A stretch of DNA of 54,186 bases from IMG/VR virus record IMGVR_UViG_3300048786_000038, positions 1-54,186 of that record. One strand, given 5' to 3'. A program made the translations under genes and the position numbers. The DNA comes from a virus. Lineage: Duplodnaviria; Caudoviricetes. Below are positions 2,756 through 54,186 of the stretch, piece by piece. The notes under the pieces are model-generated. The model was not told where the DNA came from. It ran no database searches and worked only from the letters and a program-made list of their open reading frames with translations. Each line of letters starts with the position of its first letter. Position 1 is the stretch's first letter.

Positions 2756-4401
2756 GATACAAGCTCCCTTTCGCGCACGCCTTCTTCGATCTGCTTGCGC
2801 TTCCACCAGACCCAGCCGGGCTTGTAGCCCTTCTGCCGCGCAATCTCATGCAGCAGCGTCACGTTCACCGTAAGGCGCGGCGCATCGCGCTCGACCAGAT
2901 GCCAGTATACCCACATCGGCGCGCGCCCCAATTCCTCGGCCACGCGCAACAACTCCCCCACGGGCCCTTGGGCGATTCGCGGGGGATCCTCGGTGAGTGC
3001 CGAAAGCCATGCGTCGGTTGCCGCGCCTATGCGGTCCTGCACGTCACGGCGTTCCTCGGGGGCAAGGGTCGTCCACGCCTTCGGGGCCGTTCGCTCGACA
3101 AGCGGGACGTCGAGCTCCATGACCTCCTGCTCCTCTACGGGCAGAAGCTTACATCGCCCCTTGCATGCGGGGTCGCGGCAATACTCGCCGTCACGGTAGG
3201 GGCAGAAGCGCATGGCATCGGTGGGCTCGGCACGCTCGCGCTTTTCGGTGCCCGTGAAGTTCCATTGGATATCGGGGACGAAAAACAGAGGCACCCCGGG
3301 GTATCGCGGATCGGTATGCGCTTTAATCATGTTCGCGTGGTCGATGAAAAACGCCTCCCGCTTGCCCGCGAAAGGGCGTAGCAGGCGGCCGACCATCTGA
3401 AAGTACAGCGCGCGCGATAGCGTCGGGCGGATACTTGCGCCGTATTCGAGGTTCGGGATATCGACGCCGTACGTGGCAAGGTCGCAATTGACAAGGCCGT
3501 CGATGTGCTCCTCACGCATCGCGCGGAAGGCGAAATCGCGGTCGCCCTTCGGCATGTCGCCCCAAATCGCGCGGAAGTTGTATCCCGCGTCGTTGAAGGC
3601 GGCGGCCGTTTCCTTTGCGCTTTTCACACTTCGCGTGAAGATCAGCGCGGGGCGATTGCCTCCGTTCTCCCGCACGCCGTACTTGCGATAGAACTTGATG
3701 ACGTTGCCGTAGATCACTCGCTTATTGCGGTCGATGAAAGCCTCGTATTCCGCCTCTATGACCTCGGTGCCGCGCCAGTGCAGCTTGTCGAATCCCTCGA
3801 TAGGAGGTGGGGCAAAGTAGCGCAGGGGTGCAAGGAAATCGCGCTCGGTGAGCCACGGGATCGACGGCCCGTAGTGGATGCACTCATAGGGTCCGCCGAT
3901 GTTCACGCCGTCCACCATGAGGATGCCAAGCCCGCGGCCATCCAAACGCTCAGGGGTAGCGGTCAGCCCGATCACTTTCAGCGCGGGTTTCTCTGCGGAT
4001 GCGGTGTCGATGATGAGCGCCTGAGCGTCGTAGTACAGGTGCGCCTCGTCGAATATCAGCACATCGGGCCAACGCTTGATGCGATGCAGGCGCCGCAGGA
4101 GCGTGTCCTTCGATACGATATGCACGCGGAAGGCGCGCGACTCCTCCTTGCCTGCCGCGATGATGCCGTGCGGGATTTTCCAGCGTGCGAAATGCTTGCT
4201 TGCCTGCTTCAAGAGCTCGTTACGCGGGACGACAAACCAGATCACGCGCTCGGCCGAAAGGCCCATCGCCAGTGACACTATCTCCGCGACTTCCGCCGTT
4301 TTCCCGCCCCCCGTGGGTAGCTGGTGCAGGACGGAGCGATGCTCGCGGATCAGCGGGCGCAACTCGGCTATGTCGGTGGCCTGGTAGTCGCGGAGGCTCA
4401 T
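2752..4401 (-). CDS. SF2 DEAH-box helicase
   Basis: LRDYQ Q-motif, PTGGGKT, DEAH, LTATPER, QMVGRLLR; C-terminal KGYKPGWVW. Confidence 0.9.
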   Translation of the reverse strand: MSLRDYQATDIAELRPLIREHRSVLHQLPTGGGKTAEVAEIVSLAMGLSAERVIWFVVPRNELLKQASKHFARWKIPHGIIAAGKEESRAFRVHIVSKDTLLRRLHRIKRWPDVLIFDEAHLYYDAQALIIDTASAEKPALKVIGLTATPERLDGRGLGILMVDGVNIGGPYECIHYGPSIPWLTERDFLAPLRYFAPPPIEGFDKLHWRGTEVIEAEYEAFIDRNKRVIYGNVIKFYRKYGVRENGGNRPALIFTRSVKSAKETAAAFNDAGYNFRAIWGDMPKGDRDFAFRAMREEHIDGLVNCDLATYGVDIPNLEYGASIRPTLSRALYFQMVGRLLRPFAGKREAFFIDHANMIKAHTDPRYPGVPLFFVPDIQWNFTGTEKRERAEPTDAMRFCPYRDGEYCRDPACKGRCKLLPVEEQEVMELDVPLVERTAPKAWTTLAPEERRDVQDRIGAATDAWLSALTEDPPRIAQGPVGELLRVAEELGRAPMWVYWHLVERDAPRLTVNVTLLHEIARQKGYKPGWVWWKRKQIEEGVRERELVS

Positions 4402-48671: not shown

Positions 48672-49073
48672 CTATGCTCCTATCGATACGAGATACTTCA
48701 TGGTCGTCTTGACGTCGCTGTGATTGAGCAGTTTGCACACGCGATAGATGTCCTTGTCCTTCCGGTATTCGCTCACGGCATAGAAGTGCCGCAGGTCGTG
48801 CACGCTGTAGGCATGCGCGATCTCACCCGTTGCCGCGAGCCGTCGCGTGATGCGCTTGAAGTGCGCGGCAGTCGTCCCCGCTTTCACGCCCTCAAACGGC
48901 CGTCGCCCGCGATCGCGGATAGCCGCCAGCACGCGCCGGGGGAGCTCGCCCGTCCACGCCTTGCCCTTGCTCGTGGTCGCAAAGCGCGTGCCCGTCACCG
49001 TGAGGCCCGCAAGTGCGCCGATCCTCATTCCCCTGTAAGCCATCACAATCACCGATGCCTTGAGATCTGTCAT
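48672..49073 (-). CDS. Tyrosine recombinase, catalytic domain
   Basis: RGMR, SKG, HDLRH, LLNHSD, TMKY. Confidence 0.9.
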   Translation of the reverse strand: MTDLKASVIVMAYRGMRIGALAGLTVTGTRFATTSKGKAWTGELPRRVLAAIRDRGRRPFEGVKAGTTAAHFKRITRRLAATGEIAHAYSVHDLRHFYAVSEYRKDKDIYRVCKLLNHSDVKTTMKYLVSIGA

Positions 49074-49576
49074 ATTTCCTCCAGTATGCGCTGGATCTCT
49101 TTCGCGCTCGGAATCATGTGCTCCGACGGAGCCTCCGCGCGTCGGTTGATCTTAATGAACGGCGTTTGCGCGATCACCCGCCATTTCACGAGCGTAGAGT
49201 ACAGCGACGACACCGACGATATCGCGCTGTTCACGCTTGCAGGCGCGCCCGCCAAGTCCTTCGCAAACAGATCCGCGTGCATGGGCTCAGCTAACAACGG
49301 GTGCACGCCCTGCGTATCGCACCACGCCTGCCACTTGCGAACGGCGTTTGCATACCGTCGCGCCGTCTCCGGGCTCTTCTGGGCATGAACGGCAAGAAAC
49401 TTTTTCACGATATCATTGAAGTCCACGGACAGCGCGTCGATCTGACGATCCATTTCCTTCACCAGCCGCCCGCGCACAGCCTCGCGGAAAACCTTCTGCT
49501 TCCCCTCGGCGTCCAGGTCGGCCAGCCGCGGGAGTGCAGGTGCTTCAGCGCGCGTGGTGAGTGCGCTATTTCGCAT
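49070..49576 (-). CDS. Tyrosine recombinase, core-binding (N-terminal) domain
   Basis: KSPETARRY, APASVNSAISSVSSLY, IPSAKEIQRIL. Confidence 0.8.
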   Translation of the reverse strand: MRNSALTTRAEAPALPRLADLDAEGKQKVFREAVRGRLVKEMDRQIDALSVDFNDIVKKFLAVHAQKSPETARRYANAVRKWQAWCDTQGVHPLLAEPMHADLFAKDLAGAPASVNSAISSVSSLYSTLVKWRVIAQTPFIKINRRAEAPSEHMIPSAKEIQRILEEI

Positions 49577-50897
49577 AGGGGCACGGGGCGTAGTGGATCT
49601 GATCACCATTCTCATCGACATGCCGACCACAATCGCAATAGTTCTGCGCATCCCCCTGCGGCTTCTGCTCATGGCACGGACAGGCGCACTTCTCTCCTAC
49701 CACGTGCGACGGTTCACAGTAGTGGGGGCACAGCGGCTTCTGCGGCGAGGTGCTATCCTCTCGCCAAGTACCGGCCAGCCCATCCCAATGCATCCCCGTG
49801 TGATCTCCCGCAATGTCTCCCTTCTGGGCGGCGTAGTCGCGGGCGAGGGCGGAGGCTCTATTTTTGAGCCTTTCCACCCATTCGACAAGGTACTTGGTAG
49901 GCCATGCCAGATGTATTGCATTCGAAAGATTGCCAAGCTCGGAAACCATAACCGGGTCGTGATACAGTCCCGGCGCGGAGGCGCGGAGGGCCTTCTCATC
50001 CGCCATTCTTCCGAGATATCCCTTGGCGGCATCGGACAATGGTGTTTCCGTTGAACTTGCCACAGCAAGTGGAGAGGATTGGAGGTTTTCGATTGCGTAC
50101 TCCATGTCCCGGATCGTCGCTTTCCACGATTCACCACCGCGCTCTTTTAGCCACGCAAGAACGGTCGATGCGAGCAGTCCCCCTCCCGCCCCCTCGAACA
50201 GGGCGCAGATGCGGCGCGCGTAGGTGGTAAAGGAAAGCGTAACTCCCTCTCTTAGATTGAGCCCTTCGGTGAATAAGTCGGCCAAGGCATCCCGAACCTT
50301 CGCAACTAAATCCTCAGAGGCCACGGCATCGGCAGGCGGCGGGGAGGCGCTCTCTGCCTCGTTGGTTGGCCATGATGAGGGTAGGTCACCTAATGAATCC
50401 ACGTCAGCCTCCATGGCGGCGAGATTCTTCCGAGCCTCGTCACGTTCATACTGCAAGTGCTCGGCGTCCATCTTCAACTTCTCGATATCTGCCTCGGCAC
50501 GTTCGGCGCGTTTGAGTAACCCGCTGGTCTCCGCACTCAGAGCCAACTCCAGCTCCTCGATGCGCTTCATGACAGTTTGCAGACGATGTGGAAGGTCGGT
50601 ACATTCCCACTCCTTGCGTACCTGATATTCAGAGGTTTTCCGTGAGATCATAAGGTGACATTCACCAATAGCATCACGGAAATAGACATTCAAAGACTCA
50701 GAGGCGGCGAGTTTTTGGGCCGCTTCTTCGTTCTTAGCAAGCCTTTCCTCGGCCATGTACACAGCGGCGGCGTACCCCTTTTCCACGGCCTCAAGGTCGG
50801 ATATGATGTCCCATACCAACTTACTGACAAGACTACCTTTCAAAGCATTTTGAACGACACCCTTGTCAAACCGATCAGTCCATTCCTTTGCTGTCAT
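49566..50897 (-). CDS. Mosaic coiled-coil accessory protein
   Basis: Long ORF with GGAGG Shine-Dalgarno; shares linker repeats with its neighbour. Confidence 0.7.
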   Translation of the reverse strand: MTAKEWTDRFDKGVVQNALKGSLVSKLVWDIISDLEAVEKGYAAAVYMAEERLAKNEEAAQKLAASESLNVYFRDAIGECHLMISRKTSEYQVRKEWECTDLPHRLQTVMKRIEELELALSAETSGLLKRAERAEADIEKLKMDAEHLQYERDEARKNLAAMEADVDSLGDLPSSWPTNEAESASPPPADAVASEDLVAKVRDALADLFTEGLNLREGVTLSFTTYARRICALFEGAGGGLLASTVLAWLKERGGESWKATIRDMEYAIENLQSSPLAVASSTETPLSDAAKGYLGRMADEKALRASAPGLYHDPVMVSELGNLSNAIHLAWPTKYLVEWVERLKNRASALARDYAAQKGDIAGDHTGMHWDGLAGTWREDSTSPQKPLCPHYCEPSHVVGEKCACPCHEQKPQGDAQNYCDCGRHVDENGDQIHYAPCPYAK

Positions 50898-50920
50898 ATC
50901 AACCTCCAAATAAGTAGGGC

Positions 50921-52207
50921 CTACTTGCTCGAAACCGAATGACCAGTAGAAGAGTGGTGAGCGTTCCCCTCGGCTTCCGTCATGTCTCGCATCATGCAGT
51001 CATCACAGGCCCACGGCGGAGGGGTGCGGAAGAAGGCGTGCTCCTCTGCGATTTCGCTTTCCCACTTGCCTTGGGCAGCGTCGATTGCTTCCCGAAGCGT
51101 TGGAGCATTTAGAGTTGCGATCTTCTCAGGGTTGACTTCGACTTGAAATGCCGTGGCCTTCCCTGTTTGGTTGCGGAGGCCAGAGAGATAGACTTCGACG
51201 TAGTTATCGTCGTAGGTCATCACGTGTTCCAGCCAGTCCAACCGTTGTGAATCCCGCAGTCCCGGATCGGCAGGCGGCGGGGAGGCGCGATCAGGAATAT
51301 TTTCTACCGCTTTTTGGGAATATTCCTTATGCCTTTCATCAATCCAAAGGTGTTCGACAACGTTGCAGTAACCGAGGATTGGACCCTTGTGCCGATCGTG
51401 AACGCGAAGGGCATCCTCTCTTCGTGCAAACCTTATCGCGTCGTTGATGTCGGTCGTCCATCCGAGGAAATCCCCGCCCGCCCAGTAACGAGGAGGCTCT
51501 CCGCTTACATCTTGCCTTCGCTCGATCAGCCAAGCCTTTTCCTCGTCGTTCGCTCGCCACTTCATCGCATCCCGGACAAGCGCGTCATATTCCTGTTGAC
51601 TGAGCGCTCCCCCCGCCCCCTCGAACAGCGCACAGATGCGGGTGGCCTCTTCGCATAGTTCCTGTTTCCATTCAACACTCTTATCGTCCCAAGGTAGATC
51701 ATCAGGATCATTTACATACCATCGACATAGTTCCCGCGCTACCTGCTCCACACGCGAAGGCTGTGCCGGCGGGACACCGAGGCGTTCGGTCTCAGCATCC
51801 GATAGGCCAGTGACAAACTCTATCGAGGGTTGGACCGCACTCGCCGTTTCGACATGTGACGGGGTGCCGTGAACGGGGCACACGGATGAGGTGTAGGCAT
51901 TGACACACGTACATTGCGGAGTGTGGAGGATGGCATCAAGAATGTGATCCAGTGTATCGCATCCCCATTTCGGGATATACCATTTTCCATCCAGCAGTTG
52001 ACTCCCCTCTGACGTGCCATTGTCGGTCTGGATGTACTGCGAGAGAACAGCCTCCCGCAGGCCCCCCTCCCCGAACAGCGCACAGATGCGGGTAGCGACT
52101 TCTTCCACCGTGTGTTCGCCAGTAGACAATATACACTCGTCGTAAAAATGTGGTATGATCGTGACAAACGATTCAAGCCAGTCATGCCATTCTTTCGCGC
52201 TACGCAT
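50921..52207 (-). CDS. Mosaic accessory protein
   Basis: Long ORF with AGGAGG Shine-Dalgarno; DSQRLDWLE and TLREAIDAA modules. Confidence 0.7.
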   Translation of the reverse strand: MRSAKEWHDWLESFVTIIPHFYDECILSTGEHTVEEVATRICALFGEGGLREAVLSQYIQTDNGTSEGSQLLDGKWYIPKWGCDTLDHILDAILHTPQCTCVNAYTSSVCPVHGTPSHVETASAVQPSIEFVTGLSDAETERLGVPPAQPSRVEQVARELCRWYVNDPDDLPWDDKSVEWKQELCEEATRICALFEGAGGALSQQEYDALVRDAMKWRANDEEKAWLIERRQDVSGEPPRYWAGGDFLGWTTDINDAIRFARREDALRVHDRHKGPILGYCNVVEHLWIDERHKEYSQKAVENIPDRASPPPADPGLRDSQRLDWLEHVMTYDDNYVEVYLSGLRNQTGKATAFQVEVNPEKIATLNAPTLREAIDAAQGKWESEIAEEHAFFRTPPPWACDDCMMRDMTEAEGNAHHSSTGHSVSSK

Positions 52208-52242
52208 TTTCCCTCCTATCGGTAAGCAAACATACCAGTTAC

Positions 52243-52917
52243 TTAACTCTCAAACGTTATCGCCCATACCCACGGATTGGATTCCCACGAGTAGCCGCGC
52301 TTGGCGTTGATGGAATCCCACACGTGCGTGAAAGCTTCCCGTGCGGTCGGCCAGCACTGGAGAGTACCCTTGACCGCATGAATGCCGCCGAGGTAGTAGC
52401 CACCGCTAAACTCGATGCCCTCCGCCTTCGCATCCTCCTCCGTGATCTCGTTCACCCTCTGCACGCGCACGTCCGTGATGCGGAGCGTGAGACGTGACGC
52501 CCAGCGCGGCATGTGGATTGCGGGAGTCCAGCGCGGTTCGATGATGCACCCGCCATCAGCGCGGTACATGATGCTATCGGCAAAAAAGTCGCGCTCGGCG
52601 TCGGTGTAGCGTTTGGCAAACGTCTCCCGAACCCAGAGCAGATCACCGGGTTGTCCGTAGGGACACGCTGGGGGCTTTTCGTTGATGTAGGTTTTCCCGT
52701 TCTCTCCGGGATGCTTCCATCCGAAGTATTCGGCGCCGATAGTGCCTTCGTGATACTCGGGTTGAGGTTTCACGACCCGCCTTGTTTGAGTTTTTCTATT
52801 TTCCAGAATTGCTCTTACCATTGGCCCTGAGAATAGAATTGGACTTGTGCGGACAGATTCCACCATTTCTCTTTCGCCCCTGATTACAGTTGGCGCAGAG
52901 GAGTTGATATCCTTCAT
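52243..52917 (-). CDS. ASCH/PUA-like phage protein, functional downstream part
   Basis: PILFSGPMVRAILENRKTQTRR, PGDLLWVRETF, HMPRWASR, NPWVW. Confidence 0.85.
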   Translation of the reverse strand: MKDINSSAPTVIRGEREMVESVRTSPILFSGPMVRAILENRKTQTRRVVKPQPEYHEGTIGAEYFGWKHPGENGKTYINEKPPACPYGQPGDLLWVRETFAKRYTDAERDFFADSIMYRADGGCIIEPRWTPAIHMPRWASRLTLRITDVRVQRVNEITEEDAKAEGIEFSGGYYLGGIHAVKGTLQCWPTAREAFTHVWDSINAKRGYSWESNPWVWAITFES

Positions 52918-53281
52918 GCGGGAACCCTCTTTTTTTCAGCCACGCATAACATGCTTTCGAGCCCCTGCCTATTTGACGACGATGTGCCGCTCCGTCGTTT
53001 TGAGAATGGTCTATTTCCAGAAATGCCTTCTCCAATTCCCCGCAACATGAACATTTCCCGCCATACGCACCGATAATCTCCACTCGCAACGCAGCATATC
53101 GAACCCTCTCGCGTTCGGCATTCTTCGCGAGATGAATTGGGGAAAGCTCTTTTCGGCGAGCACGTATCTTCTTGCGATTCTTCTTGTACTGAGAGCGTTC
53201 CCGTTTTTTCACCTTCTCCGCATTCCTCTTGTAGTAATCCCGATCCGCTTCTATCTTCTTTTGCTTTTCTTTGTACGGCAT
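52796..53281 (-). CDS. HNH endonuclease overprinted on the ASCH-like locus
   Basis: YGGKCSCCGE...LEIDHSQNDG...YQLLCANCN. Confidence 0.9.
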   Translation of the reverse strand: MPYKEKQKKIEADRDYYKRNAEKVKKRERSQYKKNRKKIRARRKELSPIHLAKNAERERVRYAALRVEIIGAYGGKCSCCGELEKAFLEIDHSQNDGAAHRRQIGRGSKACYAWLKKRGFPHEGYQLLCANCNQGRKRNGGICPHKSNSILRANGKSNSGK

Positions 53282-53390
53282 ACCCGCCATGGTAACGAAA
53301 GACACACTTTATGTCAAGCGTCTTTCGGCCTTCGAGGATCGCGCGCACCATCGCAGATTGGAATAGTATTGGTCTCTCTTTCACTTTCAC
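52914..53390 (-). CDS. Original ASCH-like N-terminus continuing as an off-frame read of the HNH gene (start uncertain)
   Basis: KERPILFQSAMVRAILEGRKT followed by atypical sequence; stop overlaps ATG 52917. Confidence 0.6.
   Translation of the reverse strand: MKVKERPILFQSAMVRAILEGRKTLDIKCVFRYHGGYAVQRKAKEDRSGSGLLQEECGEGEKTGTLSVQEESQEDTCSPKRAFPNSSREECRTREGSICCVASGDYRCVWREMFMLRGIGEGISGNRPFSKRRSGTSSSNRQGLESMLCVAEKKRVPA
53289..53317 (-). promoter_or_regulatory. sigma70-type promoter, leaderless, for the HNH ORF
   Basis: TTGACA-17-TACCAT-7-ATG(53281). Confidence 0.8.
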
Positions 53391-53410
53391 TACCTCACCG
53401 ATATTGTCTG

Positions 53411-54186
53411 TTACCCTGCACATGCCGCATTCCTTGCAATCAGGGCAGGGCGCGCCCATTGCCTTTGGAATAGCATCCACTTCGGGTCTCTATTGCCCTT
53501 TCTGTCCCTGTAGAGCATAGCCATTGGAAACATTCCAAGAACCGTCACGCAGTAGCACAGTCGATCCTCTGCTTTTTCAATTGTATCTCCGGGGTATCCG
53601 ATGAGAACGTACACGCGGAGTTTGTGACGATTGAATCCAGCGTCATGCAATCTCTTCGCGGCTTCTACGAGCGGTTCGAGGTCATCGTCTGTGTCCCAAG
53701 CAAAGAACATTTGCTCAATGCGAGACGCGGCCAGAAGCTCTATATGCCAATCCTTCAATCGTGCCGCTTCCAGACCCCCCGTAAATTGCGCTCGTTCCTT
53801 CTGGCGAGCGAGCATAGCAAACACTCCTCTAATGTGATCCTCCGAACAGGCCAATAAATTGTCATCTAAAATGTTGAAACCTTCGCGGATCGGAAGCTCG
53901 CGAACCTCTTGGCCTTCACGCCTCCACACTGAACAGAACCAGCACCGATTCGGGCAACCCCGTGAAGTGATGAGATAGCCGGGTTTGACGTACTGCCCGG
54001 GGGTGAAATCATCTCCACGCATTCCCGTTGCTGGTCCACCGATCCTAACGGGGGCAACGTGTGACCATTCTTTTGAAAGCCGATCAGCCTCGGTGAGATC
54101 CCACGTAAAGAGCACTGAGATATGGATCTCATCAGCTTCATCGGAAAAATCCGGAAGCCCCACCCTTGCCAGAGAATCGGTCGGGG
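53411..54186 (-). CDS. Radical SAM protein, 5' end beyond the window edge
   Basis: TSRGCPNRCWFC (CxxxCxxC), DDNLLA, YVLIGY. Confidence 0.85.
   Translation of the reverse strand, partial: PTDSLARVGLPDFSDEADEIHISVLFTWDLTEADRLSKEWSHVAPVRIGGPATGMRGDDFTPGQYVKPGYLITSRGCPNRCWFCSVWRREGQEVRELPIREGFNILDDNLLACSEDHIRGVFAMLARQKERAQFTGGLEAARLKDWHIELLAASRIEQMFFAWDTDDDLEPLVEAAKRLHDAGFNRHKLRVYVLIGYPGDTIEKAEDRLCYCVTVLGMFPMAMLYRDRKGNRDPKWMLFQRQWARPALIARNAACAG

Follow-up and report, generated by a model that had tools for sequence, protein, structure and literature searches.

Organization of the interrupted gene

The window analyzed here is the whole 54,186-nt stretch of a Caudoviricetes phage record (IMG/VR IMGVR_UViG_3300048786_000038). 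Close to its end, the minus strand carries an ASCH-like gene of family phrog_874, whose native start comes first and is followed from position 53318 by a 530-nt cassette (Table 1). The cassette is composed of a promoter-like site, an HNH gene and, overlapping the 3′ end of the latter, a substitute N-terminus for the host gene (copy 2); its non-coding portion is 37 nt. The sequence-only reading had described an HNH gene in the +1 frame, use of all three minus-strand frames, an ATGA overlap and a duplicated N-terminus, and every one of these elements was found in place. The upstream neighbor (Pfam Radical_SAM, E = 2e-8; phrog_9298, E = 1e-20) was present in 0 of 80 related loci in one set and in none among L211–L290.

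Table 1. Features of the interrupted ASCH-like locus, in window coordinates
Feature	Positions	Strand	Description
Radical SAM domain gene	53411..54184	-	upstream neighbor, runs past the record end
Copy 1 (stub)	53319..53390	-	native ASCH-like 5′ end, 22–24 codons
Cassette	52789..53318	-	~530 nt, length not divisible by 3; inserted at RKT|QTRR, after the T codon and before the Q codon
Sigma-70-like promoter	53289..53317	-	TTGACA, 17 nt, TACCAT
HNH endonuclease gene	52796..53281	-	161 aa, +1 frame relative to the stub
ORF A	52914..53390	-	stub plus stop-free read-through, in the host frame, of the promoter and 121 HNH codons
ATGA	52914..52917	-	ORF A stop overlapping the ORF C start
ORF C	52243..52917	-	complete ASCH-like protein, 224 aa, third frame
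Copy 2	52783..52845	-	recoded cassette-borne N-terminus SPILFSGPMVRAILENRKTQT, ORF C codons 25–45

The stub is preceded by GGTGAGG (53399–53393) and offers GTG starts at 53390 and 53384. It encodes (K)VKERPILFQSAMVRAILEGRKT, an N-terminus of the type usual in the ASCH-like family; GTG 53384 is the more likely start because of its Shine-Dalgarno spacing and the family's usual MKERPILF beginning. ORF A, running from 53480/53390 to 52914, reads ..VKVKERPILFQSAMVRAILEGRKT and continues as LDIKC... until a TGA at 52916–52914. ORF C matches phrog_874 in a profile search (E = 4.4e-70) and carries a 24-residue N-terminal extension, after which SPILFSGPMVRAILENRKTQTRR occupies residues 25–47. Positions 58–87 of the phrog_874 profile are matched by ORF A residues 26–55 and by the start of ORF C alike, and the duplicate N-terminus was recovered by tblastn (E = 8e-5) and in a genome search (E = 2.7e-4). 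The two copies are identical at 36/57 nt and 14 of 19 residues. An internal in-frame ATG at 52866 (ORF C M18) lies 8 codons ahead of the PILF motif; it is also present in the homologous protein P0002, which starts at the same ATG as that of the ATGA overlap.

ORF C was modeled with AlphaFold at a pLDDT of 89.9. The top 8 PDB fold matches of the model are all ASCH/PUA-like chains, including 3s9x, 1t62 and YqfB 9kyf (best E = 8.7e-4; TM-score by target 0.47–0.72). Against Pfam ASCH, ORF C reached E = 0.025 and 15.7 bits, below the 21.2 cutoff; at E ≤ 0.01, no Pfam family was detected in ORF A, HNH or ORF C, and PDB sequence searches with HNH and ORF C as queries gave no useful match.

The left cassette edge is defined by short foreign contigs with HNH-less (naive) alleles, which match 53318–53352, diverge from the window at 53318 and continue directly with the QTRRV codons. 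The right edge was placed from the logic of the duplication and a shift in GC3, and could lie up to ~8 codons further on. At the left end, TTGACA-17-TACCAT-7-ATG (53317–53279) is the sole match to this arrangement in the window, and 100 shuffles yielded 0.00. With a score of 10/12, the promoter-like site is the best in the region and one of only 7 sites in the window that reach at least 10/12. The HNH ATG, 7 nt past TACCAT, has a geometry compatible with a leaderless transcript. Promoter-like hexamers, read by eye, occur at the same place in L001, L214, L217, L218, L222 and L226.

The HNH protein matches phrog_2255, ‘HNH endonuclease’ (E = 1.9e-10), and more weakly phrog_3106 and phrog_4234; in Pfam, its single hit was Endonuclease_7 at E = 0.16. 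A CxxC..DH..N..CxNCN motif is invariant across 9 aligned sequences (C77, C80, D91, H92, C129, N131, C132, N133 and N139), and we read it as the D-H ... N ... N catalytic core of a His-Me finger together with two CxxC pairs. The protein begins with MPY.. in the window and in L211, L213, L215 and L218, and the last ~16 codons of its gene overlap copy 2.

Distribution of the cassette

The cassette is patchily distributed. An ASCH-like gene overlapping the HNH 3′ end was found at 14 of 80 metagenome loci, which account for 14 of the 16 best HNH matches; all of the closest 14 HNH relatives, and likewise L001, overlap an ASCH-like gene at its 5′ end, giving 15 cassette-bearing loci besides the window. 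The HNH-less allele is the norm, with HNH carried by none of the viral loci holding an ASCH-like gene in either of two sets (0/80 and 0/80). The second set came from a scan of viral contigs with the ORF A alignment, which returned naive alleles only, and scans with the ORF A homologues P0126 and P0137 and with the HNH of another cassette of the window (cassette 1) gave no matches. Among genome contigs scanned with HNH, 6 distant HNH matches were obtained, 0 of them adjoining an ASCH-like gene.

HNH identity to the window exceeds that of the ASCH body by a wide margin (72% versus 40% in L211, 66% versus 33% in L213 and 60% versus 32% in L214), whereas the nearest host-gene relative, L048 (58%), is naive. 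Nucleotide identity among the window, L211 and L213 is 0.53–0.80 from the stub to ~52740 and then falls. In a tree of ASCH bodies (L219 and one naive locus, which failed the motif filter, are omitted), the window pairs with naive L048 at 95 SH-aLRT and the 9 HNH-bearing rows require 9 changes; the tree is poorly resolved, with 8 of 73 inner branches starred and only 2 changes forced by starred branches, so that repeated loss is inseparable from repeated gain. Upstream genes differ among the cassette loci, and their genomic contexts are unrelated. The marks of a homing element found here are a presence/absence polymorphism of HNH among homologous host genes, insertion at a conserved site and an element identity above that of the host gene. 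Comparison with uninterrupted homologues, proposed as a check in the sequence-only reading, showed naive alleles to be frequent and the stubs to group with them.

An open host frame ending in an RTGA overlap

The host frame is free of stops through 121 HNH codons, up to the ATGA at 52917–52914. It stayed open in 0 of 2000 synonymous shuffles of the HNH gene (mean 7.7–8.1 stops) and in 0 of 2000 codon-order shuffles, and its openness is beyond chance. The third frame holds 5 stops against 4.4 expected, two more stops follow in the host frame within 40 codons beyond the ATGA, and each of the 47 HNH homologues examined from viral contigs shows 3 or more stops in the corresponding frame. Avoidance of stops is confined to the host frame and extends no further than the overlap.

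The overlap is conserved in related cassettes. In the window, L211 and L213, whose HNH proteins are 66–72% identical, the stub frame ends at HNH nucleotide 365, in ATGA, GTGA and ATGA, respectively; the HNH residues encoded there differ (H-E, R-D and N-D), and the stub frame was open in 0, 0 and 2 of 2000 synonymous shuffles. No ATG occurs from the RTGA overlap to the PILF motif in L211 or L213. A Shine-Dalgarno-like AGAGGG lies ahead of the window ATGA and is not conserved in L213. Support for the earlier proposal of translational coupling is comparative, and comes from the RTGA at the same nucleotide and the open frame in these three lineages.

Five relatives are without read-through (L214, L215, L217, L216 and L001). 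In L214, L215 and L001, where the stub stops before HNH, the corresponding frame contains 7, 19 and 8 stops; in closed-stub relatives, the ASCH-like gene begins at an ATG within the HNH codons for NGGICPH. In L218, the stub frame is open for ~145 codons (86 of 2000 shuffles open), ends ~8 codons before the overlap site and has another frame relation. Homologues of ORF A (P0122–P0126 and P0137) were also recovered as predicted proteins, with P0123, P0125, P0126 and P0137 known from protein sequence alone and P0122 lacking 6 residues within the HNH region. The P0126 ORF has its end at ..KEWW, and re-initiation there may use the older start site. ORF-A-like proteins form at least 6 clusters at 50% identity, 5 of 6 ending at one alignment column, in a predicted-protein library that shows open-frame lineages only. 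The ORF A amino-acid sequence is 29–40% conserved.

A programmed −1 frameshift into the ORF C frame at an A AAA AAG heptamer in ORF A phase (A-run 52930–52936) was also considered and dropped: P0123 reads QKTG there, so the heptamer was attributed to the K-K-R codons of HNH.

Two RNA libraries yielded contigs over 53262–53577, 52829–53018, 53124–53274 and 53262–53412. They give a weak hint of expression, possibly from carried-over DNA, and stretches lacking such cover are uninformative.

A recoded N-terminus and a candidate target site

Conservation within the gene peaks at RKT|QTRR, where the junction lies. AAG is used in 99 of 117 distinct naive sites and a Thr codon in 115, and positions 6, 12, 13, 15, 16, 21, 22, 25 and 28 of the last 30 nt are conserved at 99–100%. 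Stubs follow this pattern, with AAG plus ACG or ACA at the junction in 7 of 7. The cassette-borne copies have codons of their own, all 7 using AAA plus ACT, AGC, TCT or CAT; these target and immunity patterns come from related cassettes of shared ancestry and are non-independent. Copy 2 also stands apart in composition, with a GC3 of 0.19 versus 0.73 in ORF C codons 46–224. The earlier suggestion of a recoded copy of the target region gains comparative support from these AAA and non-ACR codons, as against AAG-ACR in naive alleles.

Codon-level comparison further separates the two N-termini by origin. The window stub shares 38–40 of 54 nt with other stubs and with naive L048 and 34 of 54 with its own copy 2, and the window copy 2 shares 40 of 54 nt with the copy 2 of each of L211 and L213. 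Copy 2 thus groups with other copy 2s and stubs with naive alleles. The repeat is therefore no local tandem duplication, an outcome that the sequence-only reading had named as a possible refutation.

Proposed mechanism and alternatives

Taken together, we interpret the locus, with a probability of roughly 70%, as a free-standing HNH homing cassette, intron-less and intein-less, that entered a phage ASCH-like gene at its 5′ end and preserves its host through a replacement N-terminus and termination-reinitiation. On an operon transcript, ribosomes would initiate at the native signals of the stub, traverse the promoter and, still in the host frame, 121 codons of HNH, stop at the TGA and restart on the ATG that overlaps it; the product would be a full-length ASCH-like protein with the 24-residue extension. 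HNH would be made separately, from its own and probably leaderless transcript. The endonuclease is predicted to cut or nick naive alleles around AAG-ACR-CAR, and repair using the stub as left homology arm and the gene body as right arm would copy the cassette in. Copy 2 and the split site would be immune to cutting because the junction-proximal codons are altered to AAA plus a non-ACR codon, and the divergence of the copies (36/57 nt identical) may reduce loss of the cassette through recombination between the repeats. A likely origin is an intergenic HNH gene that overlapped an ASCH-like gene at its start, as in L220 and L221, with the HNH unit and the gene start copied together into a broken naive allele.

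A broader version of this proposal, which we hold tentatively and rate at somewhat below even odds, is that the HNH-cassette clade evolved, besides RNA and protein splicing, a third route to harmless insertion into coding sequence, combining a cleavage-immune replacement 5′ end with host ribosomes threaded through the endonuclease gene in a stop-free frame and re-initiating on the new end. Read-through may then prevent ribosomes on the operon transcript from using the HNH start, confining nuclease production to the leaderless transcript, and the stub could act as a portable left arm that permits homing whatever lies upstream.

Among the alternatives, it is possible but unlikely that the locus is a homing element with a replacement N-terminus in which the stub is inert and no re-initiation takes place. 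The ASCH-like protein would then come from the internal ATG at 52866, and the frame would be kept open against polarity or Rho termination of the operon transcript, to block initiation of HNH by passing ribosomes, or as a useful overprinted peptide. This alternative draws on the presence of that ATG in both the window and P0002, on the closed-stub relatives that start the gene inside the NGGICPH codons, and on L218, which stays open yet ends short of the overlap site. Against it, L211 and L213 lack any ATG between RTGA and PILF, and three lineages retain the same stop nucleotide with an RTG overlap despite differing HNH residues; the variant with an overprinted protein is further weakened by the low conservation of ORF A residues (29–40%), as expected if only openness matters. 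We consider it improbable that the locus is instead a domesticated, vertically inherited gene pair, in which an HNH that no longer homes serves the phage and the two N-termini stem from an old tandem duplication. No mobility was observed, DNA runs X12 and X13 (described below) show no HNH-less allele of the same phage, and P0122 carries its deletion in the HNH region, all of which would suit domestication; the unrelated genomic contexts with different upstream genes, the HNH identity far above that of the host gene, the scatter of HNH-bearing alleles over the host-gene tree, and the grouping of copy 2 with copy 2s and of stubs with naive alleles all argue against it.

Phage group I introns often harbor HNH genes, and an RKT–QTRR junction would restore a perfect N-terminus. 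A self-splicing group I intron, an intein or a ribosome bypass that joins stub and body was weighed as well. Such joining is highly improbable: Rfam gave 0 matches at E ≤ 1 over 51800–54186, on which the intron reading was dropped; the HNH ORF and copy 2 fill the 530-nt insert except for 37 nt; HNH is out of frame and Pfam finds 0 families in ORF A; and splicing out the element would leave no purpose for a second complete N-terminus. As the record is a metagenome assembly, the duplication and the three-frame layout could in principle be an artefact, as the sequence-only reading had itself allowed for; we regard this as scarcely conceivable. At least 98% of the sampled words are present in 14 of 22 listed runs, and Logan contigs of runs X12 (52307–53800) and X13 (52274–53341) span both copies and HNH, crossing the junctions without differences, although these runs may include the source sample. 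Neither run shows a joint that skips the cassette, and homologous layouts occur in other metagenome contigs.

Significance and relation to known systems

Homing endonuclease genes are thought to persist within genes mainly via introns or inteins. Those of phage group I introns and inteins have conserved targets and a patchy distribution and are rendered neutral by RNA or protein splicing; neither type of splicing is detectable here. The present locus points to a splicing-free route by which intergenic homing elements may become intragenic. Together with its relatives it offers a compact natural test case, in which open- and closed-frame versions of the cassette coexist and the sequences reveal both the candidate target, AAG-ACR-CAR within RKT|QTRR, and its putative immune version. 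The locus also bears on phage annotation, as gene callers here either cut the host gene short, overlook HNH or annotate the carrier ORF as a protein.

Free-standing homing endonuclease genes of T4-like phages, such as mobE in nrdA of Aeh1, mobA, seg43 and T4 mobE with its UAAUGA overlap, are described in the main text of Edgell, Gibb and Belfort (2010, PMC2988022). They share with the present cassette the lack of an intron, a location in or beside conserved phage genes, start/stop overlaps suggestive of coupling, and homing with co-conversion of flanks. In those systems, the host gene is cut into two reassembling polypeptides, or the endonuclease is coupled to an upstream gene. Here, by contrast, nothing is split, since the duplicated N-terminus leaves the downstream piece whole, and the host gene would be the coupled one, via an ORF laid over the endonuclease.

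The nearest known kinds are ShiLan-type hidden HNH insertions and the mORF gene hybrids of fungal mitochondria, and the arrangement reads as an N-terminal mirror image of the latter. In the mORF hybrids, known from atp6 of Allomyces macrogynus and atp6, atp9, cox2 and nad3 of Glomus (main text of Beaudet et al. 2013, PMC3630166), the endonuclease ORF also brings along one host-gene end of foreign origin; the displaced native end persists as a diverged duplicate, and it is the native copy that resembles close relatives, the inserted copy being unlike them. There, the C-terminus is replaced, the endonuclease is of the LAGLIDADG or GIY-YIG type, many inserts are in phase and the host genes are mitochondrial (PMC3630166), whereas here the host is a phage, the N-terminus is replaced, and an HNH gene in another frame has its own putative promoter and a stop/start overlap.

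The first descriptions of ‘hidden’ out-of-frame HNH insertions date from 2025 and concern the ShiLan domain and related cases in DNA methylase genes of actinophages (Arsenault, Gosselin and Gogarten 2025, PMC11855218). As far as the main text of that paper goes, the resemblance is extensive: an alternate-frame HNH lies within a phage gene that shows no sign of an intron or intein, stops are absent from the host frame across HNH, insertion is at conserved residues, the insert edge has a short similarity to the host flank (11 residues in ShiLan), the site residue differs between invaded and uninvaded alleles, and leaderless initiation of HNH was proposed (PMC11855218). The ShiLan insert is in phase, so that the host protein resumes and keeps the insert as a loop (PMC11855218). 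Unlike ShiLan, the 530-nt insert here is out of phase, the host frame serves as a carrier only and ends in the RTGA overlap, and the protein would restart on a complete second N-terminus supplied by the cassette. The strings ‘promoter’, ‘duplicat’ and ‘reinitiat’ are absent from the available text of the ShiLan paper (PMC11855218), and neither the papers listed by literature searches nor the text consulted in the three papers cited here gave an account of a duplicated N-terminus together with a stop/start overlap reached through an HNH gene in another frame. Elsewhere in the window, cassette 1 (1393–1848) fits the ShiLan kind directly, its insert being in phase.

Anatomy of the interrupted gene

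The ASCH-like gene lies at the right end of the window, a whole IMG/VR virus record (54,186 bases) that CheckV rates as complete, and is interrupted by a ~530-nt cassette composed of a promoter, an HNH gene and a second N-terminus (copy 2). All coordinates and strings of the sequence-only reading proved correct. The frame of the native 5' end (copy 1, or stub) stays stop-free up to TGA 52916–52914, which overlaps the ATG of the long downstream ORF (ORF C) as ATGA. Of the two GTG codons, the one at 53384 is more likely to be the native start, judging by its distance from the Shine-Dalgarno-like sequence and by the family-typical MKERPILF start. Only seven sites in the 54 kb match the sigma-70 consensus at ≥10 of 12 positions, two of them the promoters of the window's two HNH cassettes.

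Features of the ASCH-like locus, in order of transcription
Feature	Position	Strand	Remark
Radical SAM gene	ends 53411	minus	right end of window, first in order
Spacer, 26 nt	between radical SAM gene and GTG starts	minus	holds GGTGAGG
Copy 1	53390, 53384	minus	two in-frame GTG codons, then KERPILFQSAMVRAILEGRKT
ORF A (carrier ORF)	53390–52914	minus	stub plus stop-free host frame through HNH
Cassette	53318–52789	minus	promoter, HNH, copy 2; right edge approximate, up to ~8 codons further on
Promoter-like site before HNH	53317–53279	minus	TTGACA-17-TACCAT-7-ATG
HNH gene	53281–52796	minus	+1 frame
ORF C, 224 codons	52917–52243	minus	third frame; SPILFSGPMVRAILENRKTQTRR, then remaining protein

ORF C belongs to phrog_874 (E 4.4e-70), and the 30 residues past the first start match identical positions (58–87) of this profile. 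It has no Pfam match at E ≤ 0.01, ASCH scoring only E 0.025. An AlphaFold model (43 homologues, pLDDT 89.9) makes 'ASCH-like' a fair name at the level of the predicted fold, because its top eight PDB matches are all ASCH/PUA-like, including 3s9x, 1t62, YqfB 9kyf and PH0355. The inserted gene matches phrog_2255 'HNH endonuclease' (E 1.9e-10) and keeps two CxxC pairs and a D-H/N/N core, invariant across nine aligned sequences.

Misassembly had been named as an explanation that would undo the finding. Logan contigs of two runs span both copies and the HNH with zero differences, and at least 98% of sampled words of 52200–53500 are present in 14 of the 22 public runs listed (peat and permafrost metagenomes), a set that may include the source of the record. 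In short contigs from other organisms, the match is confined to 53318–53352 and gives way to QTRRV codons; these are uninterrupted alleles, and their divergence places the left junction at 53318/53319. In two RNA libraries, contigs cover the ATGA region and the stretch from stub through promoter to HNH start, a weak hint of expression because DNA can occur in such libraries.

Distribution among related loci

Uninterrupted ASCH-like genes are the rule. Among 80 viral loci carrying the gene, none has this HNH within 2.5 kb, nor the radical SAM neighbour, and the HNH is likewise absent from a second set of 80 loci found via the N-terminal motif. Proteins of uninterrupted alleles start M-x-E-R/H-PILFSGPMVRAILEGRKTQTRR, and therefore copy 1 is the gene's ordinary start. 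Searching JGI metagenome contigs with the HNH disclosed the converse association with this one host gene: the ASCH-like start overlaps the HNH 3' end in 14 of the 16 best matches (41–72% identity) and in none of the remaining 64 loci. The best viral HNH match, L001, shows the same overlap.

Most ASCH-linked loci keep an N-terminal stub upstream of the HNH, of 24–27 codons (window, L211, L213, L214, L215, L217, L218), 17 codons (L216) or 7–9 codons (L001, L219, L222, L226); none was seen in L220/L221 and L224. Promoter-like hexamers, judged by eye, lie between stub and HNH start in L001, L214, L217, L218, L222 and L226, and the spacers of L218 and the window show visible homology. Immediately upstream of the L218 stub (L218:880–1060) are the remains of a further HNH 3' end (..GKQRNGGICPHKSK). 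The stub itself opens in the 'WDM' alternate frame, as cassette-borne starts typically do; L218 appears to be an allele that was invaded again and has lost its earlier HNH. The host-protein homologue P0128 has an N-terminal tandem repeat at this hot spot of the gene, with three units of nine residues (FSGAMVRAIL..).

An open host frame and two proposed modes of expression

The openness of the host frame through the HNH is more than chance. It stayed open before the ATGA in 0 of 2000 synonymous-codon shuffles of the HNH (mean 7.7–8.1 stops) and in 0 of 2000 codon-order shuffles; the other alternate frame is near expectation (5 stops, 4.4 expected), and past the ATGA the host frame gains two further stops within 40 codons. 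Viral contigs supplied 47 homologous HNH ORFs, all with at least three stops in the equivalent frame (0.09 per codon); their longest open run from the start is 107 codons in one locus and ≤42 in the others. At L016:1974–3909, a related HNH (2878–3486), open for 107 codons in an alternate frame from its start, lies between two apparent major capsid gene pieces (1974–2768, 3607–3909); an intron, a split gene and a further hidden insertion are all possible readings.

Related loci fall into two modes. In the closed mode, the stub frame meets a stop at the promoter or immediately ahead of it (L001, L214, L215, L216, L217), the HNH has 7–19 stops in that frame (counted for L214, L215 and L001), and the ASCH-like gene starts at an ATG within the HNH codons for NGGICPH. 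In the open mode (window, L211 with its partial twin L212, and L213), the frame relation is one base off, and the HNH tail reaches 16–30 codons into copy 2. Here the stub frame is open, a state kept by 0 (window), 0 (L211) and 2 (L213) of 2000 shuffles, and it ends at exactly HNH nucleotide 365, as ATGA, GTGA and ATGA, respectively. HNH residues at the overlap differ (H-E, R-D, N-D), so the HNH protein does not dictate the RTGA overlap, and neither L211 nor L213 has an ATG between the overlap and PILF. L218 is intermediate, with ~145 codons open in a different frame relation (86 of 2000 shuffles open).

ORF A might instead encode a second protein. A carrier-ORF profile searched against 1.84 billion cluster representatives returned four more full-length relatives besides P0123 and the variant P0122, and five of six aligned sequences have a common end column. 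They are only 29–40% identical, which speaks for a carrier function because it fits freely drifting HNH third positions with only stops removed. In P0122 (93% identical to ORF A), the HNH region is 18 nt shorter, replacing 11 ORF A residues with 5, and the frame is open to its unchanged end; the HNH may be decaying in this lineage while the carrier ORF is kept. A seven-A run (52930–52936, minus) forms an A AAA AAG heptamer in ORF A phase, 14 nt upstream of the ORF A stop, where a −1 slip would lead into the ORF C frame. As a frameshift site it was rejected: P0123 lacks it, and the HNH K-K-R codons probably create it incidentally.

Recoded copy and probable mobility

Copies 1 and 2 are identical at 36 of 57 nt. 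In the window, GC3 is 0.19 in copy 2 (ORF C codons 25–45), 0.58 in the stub, 0.50 in the HNH and 0.73 in the gene remainder. Across seven loci, stubs resemble one another and the HNH-less (naive) L048, and copy 2s resemble one another. The two junction codons are AAG plus ACG/ACA in all stubs and AAA plus ACT, AGC, TCT or CAT in all copy 2s; P0002, a 72% identical protein with a matching N-terminal extension, has Ser at the same position. Among 117 distinct naive sites, 99 have AAG and 115 a Thr codon. The copy-2 codons are best read as one derived state, not seven events, because the seven cassettes have common ancestry; nonetheless, their position is the very one at which the own allele of a site-specific nuclease would have to be different. 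The conserved RTGA overlap, stop avoidance and these codons lend comparative support to the earlier proposal of translational coupling with a recoded target copy.

Identity to the window is much higher for the HNH than for the host gene (L211, 72 vs 40%; L213, 66 vs 33%; L214, 60 vs 32%). L048, the nearest host-gene relative (58%), lacks the HNH and pairs with the window in the gene-body tree (95 SH-aLRT). The nine HNH-bearing rows among 88 need nine changes (shuffled labels, mean 8.5), although the tree is weakly resolved and its starred branches force just two; upstream genes vary from locus to locus. Such patchiness is the pattern expected of a homing element, and repeated loss instead of gain is a possible source of it.

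We favour a homing cassette combined with re-initiation, at a probability of roughly 0.7 from comparative sequence evidence. That the insert is a homing cassette with a replacement N-terminus is very likely; re-initiation is the probable mode of ASCH-like gene expression in the window phage. The HNH would cut naive alleles near AAG-ACR-CAR, and repair on a cassette-bearing genome would use the stub to pair with the left end and the gene body to pair with the right, copying in promoter, HNH and copy 2, which would restore the broken gene. In the sub-clade that includes the window, ribosomes that began at the native start would cross the HNH in the stop-free frame and re-initiate at RTGA; the HNH would be translated from its own transcript, in the window starting at or beside the ATG. 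Divergence of the two copies would shield the cassette from deletion by repeat recombination. L220/L221, where an intergenic HNH overlaps the start of the gene, offer a plausible model of the ancestor.

Comparison with known systems

As far as the available portions of the cited reports describe them, the closest known kind is the ShiLan-type insertion, in which HNH genes hide out of frame within phage methylase genes with the host frame open, 11-residue flank similarity, site polymorphism and a proposed leaderless initiation (PMC11855218). Unlike it, the present cassette is out of phase, its host frame ends in a stop/start overlap, and both a promoter and a complete substitute N-terminus come with it. 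In fungal mitochondria, mORFs bring in a foreign copy of the C-terminal end of atp6, atp9, cox2 or nad3, the native gene end staying as a duplicate (PMC3630166); the present locus, with its N-terminus replaced, is their mirror image. Free-standing endonucleases of the T4 type split nrdA or gene 43, with mobE overlapping nrdA in UAAUGA (PMC2988022), but there the host gene remains in pieces and the endonuclease is the coupled partner. No closer system was found in the literature listings and article texts searched.

The other HNH insert (cassette 1; 1393–1848, minus) lies within ORF 20–2806, an SNF2-helicase/DNA-methylase fusion gene, and fits a plain ShiLan-type element. Its Endonuclease_7-type HNH (PF02945, E 7e-23) follows TTGATA-17-TATAAT-7-ATG in the +1 frame, with the host frame open across the whole insert (4 of 2000 synonymous shuffles open). 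HNH-less homologues of the host (87–95% identity) have 757–760 aa, and the insert falls between residues ~324 and ~468; P0295, P0299 and other diverged homologues (40–47% identity) have a homologous insert in the host frame. The first ~60 codons 3' of the insert are much less like HNH-less P0274 than the remainder and look like a co-conversion tract.

Elsewhere in the window, a tyrosine integrase (48672–49672, minus) is present as two ORFs, a SAM-like N-terminal domain (49070–49672) and a catalytic part (48672–49073), with a four-base stop/start overlap like the ATGA; a split gene, a frameshift and a pseudogene are all conceivable. Two large downstream ORFs (49566–52207, minus; 428 and 447 aa, no family match) have a common repeated motif, ..RICALFEGAGG.., and at its 32-nt repeat the assembled contigs of two public runs, X12 and X13, show a joint that goes back.
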